39,924 nt of DNA from a virus (Duplodnaviria > Heunggongvirae > Uroviricota > Caudoviricetes), in the IMG/VR virus record IMGVR_UViG_2778261064_000020, positions 1 to 39,924 of that record; one strand, 5' to 3'. The position numbers and the translations under genes were made by a program. The notes beneath the pieces are model-generated. The model was not told the DNA's origin and did not search any database. It saw only the letters and a list, made by a program, of their open reading frames with translations. Within the stretch, counting starts at the first letter, position 1, and every line of letters begins with the position of its first letter. This document shows positions 8,858 to 10,215 of this stretch, piece after piece.

Positions 8858-8889
8858 AGAGGAAAAGAAAACCCGGCATGGAGGCCGGG
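8858..8889 (-). terminator. Rho-independent terminator (lambda tImm-like)
   Basis: Minus-strand hairpin CCCGGC-CTCCAT-GCCGGG followed by TTTTCTTTTCC; resembles the lambda terminator that ends the cI-rex operon. Confidence 0.65.
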
Positions 8890-9192
8890 TTGATGATTAG
8901 CGGTGTGGCCTTGAGCGATAATGCTCACACACATGTTCAAGATTTCCATGCCTTATCCGTTCATAGGCATTCACATGAACTTCTCGATCGAATTGGTCAT
9001 TCAAATTGTATGTAGACATCTGTGTTTTCTCATATTGGCGGCAGCCCTACAACCGCTTGAAAAAATGTACCAGACGCGCTAAGGTTACATCGCAAATATT
9101 GTGTACCTTAACAAGGGCTCCTTTTGGAGGCTCTGGTTAAACAGCATCAATGTCGGACTGGGGAGTTGGACATTGTGCTGAATGCTTTTGCA

Positions 9193-9714
9193 TTATTGAG
9201 GCCGAACGTAAACCTTCAGAATTGAAGAGATGCGTTCGGCTTCTTCGTTTGTGATATCGTTAGGAATGCCTTTAATCGTTACTGTAACCCCTGATTCAGG
9301 TCGAAGAACTACTGGAAGATCATAGGTATGAAGTGCATTAGCCTTGCCTTCGACTTTTGTTGGTTCGCCAGTCAAATCTTTTTCCTCACTGGATTCTTTG
9401 TCAATCGGAGTGTATGGGATTTCTTCACCAGACTGGAAAGCTACAAACTTTTTGATTGCACTTTCCATGCGGCTTTTATATGCAGTAATGCTGCTGTCGC
9501 TAGGCTTCGGCTCAGTTGCGTTGATGTATCGCTCGGCAAGCTCATTCACATCAAGCTGAGTAACATCACCCATTTCCTCTTCTTGGACTACCGTTAAGAG
9601 GCGAGCGGATGAGTTTTTTAAATTTCGAGCGGTGGCCTCCTTCATTATGTTCAGCGACATAAGCTCTTCAAGGAAGTCCTTGAATGCCTGCACGCTAACG
9701 TTTGACTTTGCCAT
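9193..9714 (-). CDS. Hypothetical acidic protein occupying the rexAB position downstream of cI
   Basis: 173-aa ORF with an AGAGAG ribosome-binding site; no TM segment and no motif I recognise; own promoter-like elements upstream. Confidence 0.6.
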   Translation of the reverse strand: MAKSNVSVQAFKDFLEELMSLNIMKEATARNLKNSSARLLTVVQEEEMGDVTQLDVNELAERYINATEPKPSDSSITAYKSRMESAIKKFVAFQSGEEIPYTPIDKESSEEKDLTGEPTKVEGKANALHTYDLPVVLRPESGVTVTIKGIPNDITNEEAERISSILKVYVRPQ

Positions 9715-9715
9715 T

Positions 9716-9800
9716 TGCTCTCTCTCTAAGTTATTGACTCAGATCGAGTTTATCCAGGAATTGATTTGCATGCAAGACTCAAGTCTTGAGAATTTCCGTT
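9716..9800 (-). promoter_or_regulatory. Putative sigma-70 promoter (TTGCAT-N17-TAAACT) with adjacent palindrome CTCAAGTCTTGAG
   Basis: Read on the minus strand just upstream of the 173-aa ORF; the perfect 13-bp palindrome lies just upstream of the -35, suggesting an operator. Confidence 0.4.
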
Positions 9801-9812
9801 CAAGATCCACTC

Positions 9813-9850
9813 TCAATAAAAAAGGCCGCACCTCTGCGACCTTTCATCTC
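9813..9850 (-). terminator. Rho-independent terminator
   Basis: Minus-strand GGTCGCA-GAGG-TGCGGCC followed by TTTTTTATTG. Confidence 0.6.
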
Positions 9851-10215
9851 CTAAATCTCTTTTCTCTTACCTAAAGAAACAGCAGGCTGGGTCAGCCCTA
9901 ACAACTTCAAGTGCATCGGTCAGAGAAAGCTCCGTGCTATACAGGTGTTATTTCATATCTTTTTGCATCCAATAAATTTTCCATCTGTCCAGAGAGCGGA
10001 TGCACTTGATTCTTGTTGATGGCAGGACGTTTTTTCACCTGCCTCACCCTGCCATACAGGACGCTGCTCACCGATATCTATCGTCCGGTCATTGATGTTA
10101 TAGACAATATCCAGATCATTACGGATATACTCAGATGGCCTTATGCTTTCAATGAATAGATGAACTTCTTTTTGACCGCTTGATACTCATGGCCATTAAA
10201 CTCCATCTATCCTCT

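Follow-up and report, generated by a model that had tools for sequence, protein, structure and literature searches.

The window analysed here, the whole of the 39,924-nt IMG/VR record IMGVR_UViG_2778261064_000020 (Caudoviricetes), is the mosaic genome of a temperate phage, about 40 kb in length; an integrase is encoded at the start, and the genomes that match best, each in part, are P22-like/lambdoid phages and Shiga toxin (Stx) phages. In phage lambda, the exclusion genes rexAB are sited between the repressor gene cI and tImm/oL. At the corresponding position the window carries a module composed of a gene for a 173-residue protein, here called X173, a structured RNA and a 40-codon open reading frame (ORF), here called S40, next to the remnant of a DUF3024 gene. 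Read in the direction of cI transcription, the features are as follows.

10216-10929, minus strand: cI repressor gene of lambda type, the right boundary; 99.6% amino acid (aa) identity to lambda cI, with HTH_3 and Peptidase_S24 domains
9867-10206, minus strand: DUF3024 pseudogene directly 3' of cI; 82% nucleotide (nt) identity over the whole 933W DUF3024 gene (113 aa)
9817-9845, minus strand: intrinsic terminator between the cI/DUF3024 transcript and the X173 module, AAAGGUCGCAGAGGUGCGGCCUUUUUU; hairpin at 9820-9845, dG -15.9 kcal/mol, z -4.0
9715-9787, minus strand: X173 promoter and 5' untranslated region (UTR), with the inverted repeat AAGACTCAAGTCTT, -35 and -10 hexamers and a GAGAGAG Shine-Dalgarno sequence
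9193-9714, minus strand: X173 gene, 173 aa by ORF translation, identical to ECs1184/ORF23 of Sp5
9020-9192, minus strand: structured RNA spacer of 173 nt, at once the X173 3' UTR and the S40 leader, recognised by conservation and covariation
8897-9019, minus strand: S40, 40 aa, MSTYNLNDQFDREVHVNAYERIRHGNLEHVCEHYRSRPHR; basic, rich in His and Cys, matching phrog_21154 (E 5e-8)
8860-8891, minus strand: tImm-like intrinsic terminator at the module end, an 8-bp G+C-rich stem followed by a T run
8651-8712, minus strand: oL1-oL3 and pL of lambda type, the left boundary, outside the cargo; 89.6% identity to lambda 35496-35826

The flanks of this interval are those of lambda. By blastn, window 10220-11638 aligns with lambda 37231-38649 (cI-cro-cII) at 97.7% identity, and the 89.6% match on the left extends over window 8558-8891 (nutL, oL1-3, pL and tImm). 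Three 16-nt copies of the oL operator lie at 8653-8668, 8677-8692 and 8697-8712, and a simple promoter scan found a pL-like site, TTGACA-17-GATACT, on the minus strand at 8679-8651. Between the flanks, the 1,328 bp of 8892-10219 gave no lambda match by blastn against lambda 34300-38700, and tblastn with RexA and RexB over the whole window returned no match either (best E 5.3 and 8.2, respectively). The initial annotation, made from the letters of the DNA, had placed a non-rex occupant at the rex position between a lambda-like operator, pL and tImm on the left and cI on the right, and had proposed an alignment to lambda rexAB as the check. That alignment has now been run: the identities bear out the lambda-like flanks, and the occupant, which lacks rexA/rexB similarity at the DNA and protein levels, is not a diverged rexA/rexB by blastn or tblastn. 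The same annotation had described a 173-aa ORF with its own promoter and flanking terminators, all of which we recover (9193-9714; hairpins at 9820-9845 and 8870-8891; a promoter kept across genera). Its view of the cassette as a single ORF does not hold, since it had missed the DUF3024 pseudogene, the structured RNA and the 40-aa ORF.

A protein, a structured RNA and a small ORF in fixed order

The three parts of the module recur together. In 56 of 56 related loci taken from IMG/VR and GTDB (a scan of species-representative genomes yielded 2 loci), a small co-directional ORF lies about 150-175 nt beyond X173, and the order of protein, structured spacer and small ORF is likewise kept in every one. 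The small ORFs fall into three types, namely S40, S47, which has a sub-threshold match to a treble-clef zinc finger, and S57 (phrog_33859). X173 proteins sharing 73-83% identity are paired with S40, S47 or S57, and S47 occurs with both of the spacer types described below, a shuffling of parts that fits a conserved control unit combined with interchangeable effectors. The Enterobacterales copies of the module invariably stand last before pL/N and are co-directional with cI, sometimes with variable genes in between, and they adjoin many cI alleles, at least seven. Distant S57-type modules lie outside immunity regions, one of them after DnaC-like and DUF977 genes and before a C5 methylase gene, another beside Arc and Ant. 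Judged by these contexts, the module is mobile. While the sequence and the existence of a "non-deletable hypothetical ORF" were already on record, this analysis adds the diagnosis of a pseudogene, a core-binding-like fold for X173, the conserved promoter with its operator-like repeat, the unannotated small protein, the structured RNA and a mobile three-part module with interchangeable putative effectors.

X173 is named "hypothetical" in every source, and its exact sequence is found on more than 1,000 contigs (UniProt A0A0H3JDB4). It is assigned to phrog_2602, of unknown function, and no NCBIfam or PADLOC model matched it. A profile search collected 653 family clusters at 50% identity; the best 150 of these 653 are about 110-240 aa long, mostly 160-210 aa, and almost all were matched over nearly their full length, so the two-domain build is shared among them. 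The AlphaFold model, built with 150 sequences, has a pLDDT of 89.7 and consists of a four-helix N-domain (residues 8-94), a disordered acidic linker (95-129) and a beta-beta-alpha C-domain (130-169). In this model, the N-domain has a fold like the core-binding (CB, SAM-like) domain of tyrosine recombinases, and several family members give weak Phage_int_SAM matches in Pfam. A Foldseek search of X173 against the PDB returned nothing significant, and a sequence search of the PDB with X173 profiles returned nothing meaningful. The catalytic domain with its R-H-R-Y residues is absent from X173, which ends at residue 173 after the linker and the 40-residue beta-beta-alpha unit, and none of the 41 family members scanned matched Phage_integrase in Pfam; because it has no catalytic domain, X173 is not a recombinase.

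The promoter of X173 was read from the sequence, the simple promoter scan not having listed its hexamers. The inverted repeat at 9774-9787, which occurs once in the window, abuts the -35 hexamer TTGCAT (9770-9775), and the -10 hexamer TAAACT (9747-9752) follows at a 17-nt spacing. This block is kept in E. coli, Salmonella, Cronobacter, Yersinia and Morganellaceae and partly in Serratia, with a nearly invariant 5' UTR. A Dam site, GATC at 9743-9746, lies just 3' of the -10 hexamer and is invariant in 8 of 8 aligned upstream regions, possibly as a mere part of the conserved UTR. In Cronobacter, Yersinia and Morganellaceae, about 80 additional nt separate the upstream terminator from the promoter of X173 (at about 2745-2850 in locus L020, 4830-4930 in L022 and 5830-5930 in L006); the window and Salmonella lack this insert. 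It contains a TTGACG box, a perfect LexA-box-like CTG-N10-CAG (e.g., AACTGAATTCATATACAGTG) and a hairpin with a T run, and by its sequence resembles a very small transcription unit under SOS control.

In 15 complete O157 genomes, including NZ_CP015831, the insertion sequence IS629/IS1203 lies at the equivalent of window 9739-9744, in the X173 5' UTR, with its transposase gene oriented away from X173. The element separates the -10 hexamer from the start codon, and the native promoter is therefore cut off from the whole operon; the strains concerned are viable. These genomes fit a situation in which silencing both genes is harmless and removing X173 alone is harmful, and they agree poorly with X173 being indispensable for lysogeny.

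The spacer is better conserved than the genes on either side of it, with 81-93% nt identity between genera (84-93% for the window copy) compared with 76-84% for the adjacent coding sequence. For seven distinct sequences of the window type, RNAalifold gave 51 pairs, with 94.9% of cells paired versus 32-49% when the partners were slid, and compensatory changes at 9 pairs; 0 of 500 shuffles scored as high. The window copy has a minimum free energy of -54.1 kcal/mol (z -3.9). In 19 S57-type spacers, 94.6% of cells were paired versus at most 46.5% when slid, with 18 compensatory pairs over 64 cells, in an alignment that was fitted to the covariance model R1 and hence favours the structure. Both types run in the same order, from a long hairpin after the stop codon through a long-range helix around a second hairpin, a U-rich stretch and a conserved UCAAG to a last hairpin before the Shine-Dalgarno sequence. 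R1 derives from S57-type spacers and, with its filters switched off, still missed the window spacer, so what the two types demonstrably share is a similar architecture rather than common descent. In the window type, a helix is predicted to pair the U-run with AUGAGAAA, which includes the Shine-Dalgarno sequence, and a pseudoknot between the P2 internal loop and the P4 loop is a tentative candidate, with 89% of cells paired and little covariation.

Neither the window spacer nor the S57-type spacers match Rfam 15, and no tandem or direct repeat was found in 9020-9192. GadY was rejected as an identity for the spacer, the match being weak (20.1 bits against a gathering threshold of 45, E 0.71) and lying over the terminator and S40; the prophage small RNAs AsxR, AgvB and Pas of enterohaemorrhagic E. 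coli (EHEC) were set aside too, being located at the PR' moron site. P1, the hairpin that comes first in the spacer (9148-9175), has its loop in either orientation depending on the lineage, as seen in the window and at loci L045/L017 and L057-L067: where E. coli, Cronobacter and Yersinia have CAACTCCCCAGTCC, Salmonella has AGACTGGGGAGTTG, and among the S57-type loci TTTGGCGAGG has its counterpart in CTCGCCAAAG. The central segment of P1 has been flipped between its inverted arms several times.

S40 is kept in Salmonella, Cronobacter and Yersinia, the Yersinia copy having an in-frame 9-nt insertion. E. coli and Yersinia differ by 17 synonymous and 5 non-synonymous codon changes, and by this codon comparison S40 is under purifying selection. 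It was present in every examined X173 locus that had no S47 or S57 ORF and was found in 46 phage records, compared with 48 that hold a close X173 copy, mostly without annotation. No toxin-antitoxin family in Pfam, NCBIfam, PHROGs or PADLOC was matched by X173, S40, S47 or S57, the PADLOC scan having covered X173 among the parts of the window's module. On the opposite strand, an 88-aa ORF at 8749-9015 (ORF B55 in some Stx records, phrog_22865) is probably spurious; it crosses oL and the tImm terminator and runs antisense to S40.

Boundaries, neighbours and distribution of the cargo

The ORF that follows cI is, by alignment with 933W, a decayed DUF3024 gene. Relative to 933W, the remnant has lost 1 bp near 10169-10173 and another near 10030-10035, and TGG has become TAA at 9948-9950; its reconstructed translation matches PF11225 (E 1.6e-6, 28.7 bits against a cutoff of 24.9) and is 76% identical to the 933W protein. 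A programmed -1 frameshift at C AAA AAG was considered for this ORF and is ruled out by the two separate 1-bp deletions and the nonsense codon. Intact DUF3024 genes stand directly after the repressor gene in 933W, ST160 and Morganellaceae prophages. The literature yielded nothing relevant on DUF3024 in connection with prophages, nor on ECs1182, ECs1183 or ECs1185.

Two hairpins delimit the module. The terminator at 9817-9845 is kept upstream of X173 in other genera and after DUF3024 in 933W, while the tImm-like hairpin (8870-8891; dG -14.3 kcal/mol, z -5.2) is common to lambda and to 933W, as tM, and is kept in other genera too. In 933W, the same two hairpins enclose other cargo, consisting of a RuvC-like gene, stk and a small ORF, and the exchangeable unit is therefore 8892-9818. 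The cI-DUF3024-RuvC-like-stk cassette of 933W and the C2-DUF3024-Orf23 cassette of ST160 are homologous to the window in the cI 3' end, DUF3024, the hairpin after DUF3024 and tM/tImm (82-83% nt identity). In contrast to 933W, the window has DUF3024 as a pseudogene, and X173, the RNA and S40 replace the RuvC-like gene, the Ser/Thr kinase gene and the small ORF.

From 8776 to 10626, the window is 99.6% identical to the cI-N interval of O157:H7 Stx1/Stx2 phages, and the occupant itself is 99.6-99.9% identical to its counterparts in VT2-Sakai/Sp5 and other Stx phages. The interval is shared by VT2-Sakai/Sp5, the Morioka Stx1 and Stx2 phages, Nil2, 1717, 2851 and the PA series, which differ from the window in the N-terminal half of cI, the operators and N, so recombination joints lie in the oL region and inside cI. 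Of 5,426 complete E. coli genomes, 234 contain the cargo (8890-9830), with an identity of 99% or more in each copy, and the annotation under it in those genomes is a single "hypothetical protein". By these matches, the cargo is an already known sequence shared with the main O157:H7 Shiga toxin phages. The initial annotation had considered the occupant a candidate for an undescribed defence function; this stands insofar as no function is assigned and all database names are "hypothetical", and fails insofar as the sequence was known as the ECs1184 region of Sp5/VT2-Sakai and in 234 E. coli genomes. A role in addiction or abortive infection, as proposed below, would agree with that idea of defence. 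The pairing seen in the window, lambda cI/oR/oL/N with Sakai-type cargo, was found in no phage record and in no complete E. coli RefSeq genome; the best matches to the combination cover at most 66% of 8000-11300.

Elsewhere in the window, the gene immediately after N in the pL operon (7509-8192, minus strand) encodes nucleotide-modification-associated domain 5 (Nmad5; PF18757, E 2e-71). It takes the position where Sp5 has ECs1180, the other non-deletable ORF, which the window lacks. PADLOC-DB v2, searched at E up to 0.1, has no family for X173, for a 44-aa ORF at 9937-10071 or for the Nmad5 protein. The late-regulatory region carries tRNA-Asn(GTT) and tRNA-Thr(TGT) (16713-16868, plus strand), and a tRNA-Arg(CCT) (38842-38916, minus strand) near the window end opposite the integrase is possibly the attachment-site tRNA.

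What the module may do

X173 has entered the literature under its Sakai name ECs1184, also ORF23. In 2016, Mondal et al. reported 43 in-frame deletions in Sp5 but were unable to obtain those of ECs1184 and ECs1180, and the deletion of ECs1184, attempted in an Sp5 lysogen, was judged lethal (PMC5155283). More recently, a 2025 study in Nucleic Acids Research recovered ECs1184 in the RNA-associated proteome of uninduced EHEC at a false discovery rate (FDR) of 0.065, with PNK cross-linking signal at background (PMC7618764); the protein is thus produced without induction and does not bind RNA strongly. No phage-resistance test of X173 or of the module was found in the papers searched.

The reading that we favour, tentatively and with less than even confidence, is that the lysogen expresses 8892-9818 as a self-repressed operon. 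X173 and the leader RNA would together control a small effector able to do harm once derepressed, and the circuit would behave much like an addiction or abortive-infection system. X173 would bind DNA through its recombinase core-binding-type domain, with the beta-beta-alpha C-domain serving to dimerise or to bind, and would repress its own promoter at the inverted repeat. Through its fold, the RNA would limit how much of the small protein is translated, in the window type by pairing the U-run with the GAGAAA Shine-Dalgarno sequence, and the small protein would be the effector, harmful to the cell when over-produced. A cell that lost X173 alone would then die, whereas one that lost the promoter or the entire module would be unharmed, and removal of X173 or remodelling of the RNA, for instance by phage infection, would free the effector. 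To the anatomy, conservation, fold, RNA covariation and purifying selection on the small ORF observed here, this reading adds DNA binding by X173, autorepression, toxicity of the small protein and any anti-phage effect, which we infer.

We favour a gated effector because the order of parts is invariant (56/56), the parts are shuffled, covariation is found in both spacer types and the promoter is conserved together with its repeat. It is favoured also because the CB-type fold comes without a catalytic domain, the ECs1184 deletion failed (PMC5155283), the IS629 genomes are viable, the module is mobile and the protein is present in uninduced EHEC (PMC7618764). Several points weigh on the other side. 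The toxicity of the small proteins and the binding of X173 to DNA or to the inverted repeat are deduced indirectly; no known toxin family is matched by the small proteins, which are hydrophilic, and a 173-nt spacer is atypical of type II toxin-antitoxin pairs. The failed ECs1184 deletion comes from one laboratory, with no stated cause, and that of the unrelated ECs1180 failed too (PMC5155283). Distant X173 relatives are lone chromosomal genes with neither the RNA nor an obvious small ORF, sequestration of the Shine-Dalgarno sequence is predicted for the window-type spacer only, and expression of X173 behind IS629 could persist. The broader proposal, that a core-binding-derived regulator and a folded leader RNA gating a tiny toxic, interchangeable, zinc-binding-type effector constitute an unrecognised class of prophage module, acting in addiction or abortive infection in temperate phages of Enterobacterales including the Stx phages of O157:H7, is possible and on balance doubtful.

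Two alternatives that also assign X173 a role in the lysogen seem unlikely to us, to a similar degree. In one, proposed by Mondal et al. for ECs1184 (PMC5155283), X173 maintains lysogeny as an auxiliary repressor or anti-induction factor, its loss inducing the phage and killing the cell, and the RNA and small ORF are accessory. The position of X173 in Enterobacterales, adjoining cI and transcribed in the same direction, agrees with such a role; against it, the same module stands beside at least seven cI alleles and, in the window, beside cI/oR/oL of lambda, a phage that needs no such factor. Moreover, 933W, itself a Stx phage, has DUF3024, the RuvC-like gene and stk at the site instead of the module, S57-type modules sit outside immunity regions, and IS629 severs the X173 promoter in 15 viable genomes. 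In the other, X173, with or without the small protein, would bind incoming phage DNA or protein and block replication, recombination or integration, as a non-suicidal superinfection exclusion or defence, the role that the initial annotation had in mind. The site is the classical rex position, where lambda (rexAB), 933W (stk) and BTP1 (bstA; PMC8585504) have exclusion cargo, and the module is a mobile, patchily distributed accessory with its own promoter and expression in the lysogen, whose CB-type domain, as modelled, could recognise recombination or core-type DNA sites. Exclusion of this kind nevertheless has no PADLOC match and no phage-resistance data in the literature searched, and it leaves the failed gene deletion unexplained, as it does the conserved RNA and small ORF.

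The RNA might instead be the product, as a regulatory or antitoxin-like molecule of about 175 nt bound by X173, by the small basic protein or by both. The spacer being better conserved than the coding sequence, the strong covariation in two spacer types, the near-significant recovery of ECs1184 in the RNA-associated proteome (FDR 0.065; PMC7618764) and the basic, zinc-finger-like character of the small proteins all speak for an RNA gene or ribonucleoprotein. We consider it quite improbable, given that PNK cross-linking of ECs1184 is at background (PMC7618764), that the spacer has neither a promoter nor a terminator of its own and sits exactly between stop codon and Shine-Dalgarno sequence, as a leader would, and that it shows no tandem repeat of the kind found in type III antitoxins. 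As for inert, hitch-hiking DNA with a leftover hypothetical ORF, the decay of the neighbouring DUF3024 gene and the identity of at least 99% among all E. coli copies, which fits recent clonal spread, could be taken in its support. It is nonetheless very improbable in view of purifying selection on both ORFs across genera, a family of 653 clusters with one conserved architecture, the conservation of promoter and RNA structure and the detection of the X173 protein in cells (PMC7618764).

Comparison with known systems

The Stx1/Stx2 phages of E. coli O157:H7, which are of clinical importance, have the module in their immunity region, and the X173 gene is one of only two found non-deletable in the sole systematic deletion study of Sp5. 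Its parts match no described family, the gene of its conserved small protein is absent from most annotations and its RNA is absent from Rfam. If the module does control lysogen survival or phage exclusion, this would bear on the stability and induction of Stx prophages and would add a new type of cargo at the rex hotspot. The anatomy described here allows specific genetic tests of what had been an unexplained "non-deletable hypothetical ORF".

Like lambda rexA-rexB, the module occupies the slot between cI and tImm/oL on the cI strand and is expressed in the lysogen. The two share no sequence similarity, and in place of two Rex proteins the module has a CB-like protein, an RNA and a 40-aa protein. 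While rexAB belongs to the pRM operon, the module appears to be set apart from it by the strong hairpin terminator at 9817-9845 and a separate conserved promoter between cI and X173. Among recombinase-derived phage repressors, SPbeta MrpR and phi3T SroF keep the full, inactive catalytic-domain fold in proteins of about 320 aa, whereas X173 has the CB-like domain only, joined to an unrelated beta-beta-alpha domain.

BstA of prophage BTP1 is described as an abortive-infection protein with a DNA-binding-type N-terminal domain, encoded in a single-promoter locus beside the repressor gene (PMC8585504). The X173 module resembles it as a repressor-adjacent accessory locus with one promoter and a DNA-binding-type N-domain; no homology between them was detected, and neither an RNA nor a small ORF is described for BstA. 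BstA is reportedly a single 307-aa protein with a cognate DNA element, anti-BstA. Type III (ToxIN-like) systems have a tandem-repeat antitoxin RNA upstream of an endoribonuclease toxin; the module has no tandem-repeat RNA, X173 gives no ToxN-like match and the order is protein, RNA, small protein.

The module is like type II toxin-antitoxin systems in that a single promoter and a single terminator flank two co-oriented genes, the promoter carries an operator-like repeat, the upstream product looks DNA-binding and has a disordered segment, and the upstream gene is reported to be non-deletable. For the type II pattern, in which losing the antitoxin alone would be lethal and losing both genes would be tolerated, the failed ECs1184 deletion (PMC5155283) and the 15 viable IS629 genomes give indirect support. 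The two differ in that the module matches no toxin-antitoxin family and that a 173-nt structured RNA separates its genes. The downstream proteins are 40-57 aa long, hydrophilic and interchangeable, which argues for control by regulation and not by a cognate protein-protein pair. Set beside these systems, the module fits the general description of prophage accessory or addiction-like cargo at the rex hotspot, with a real chance of representing a new class.

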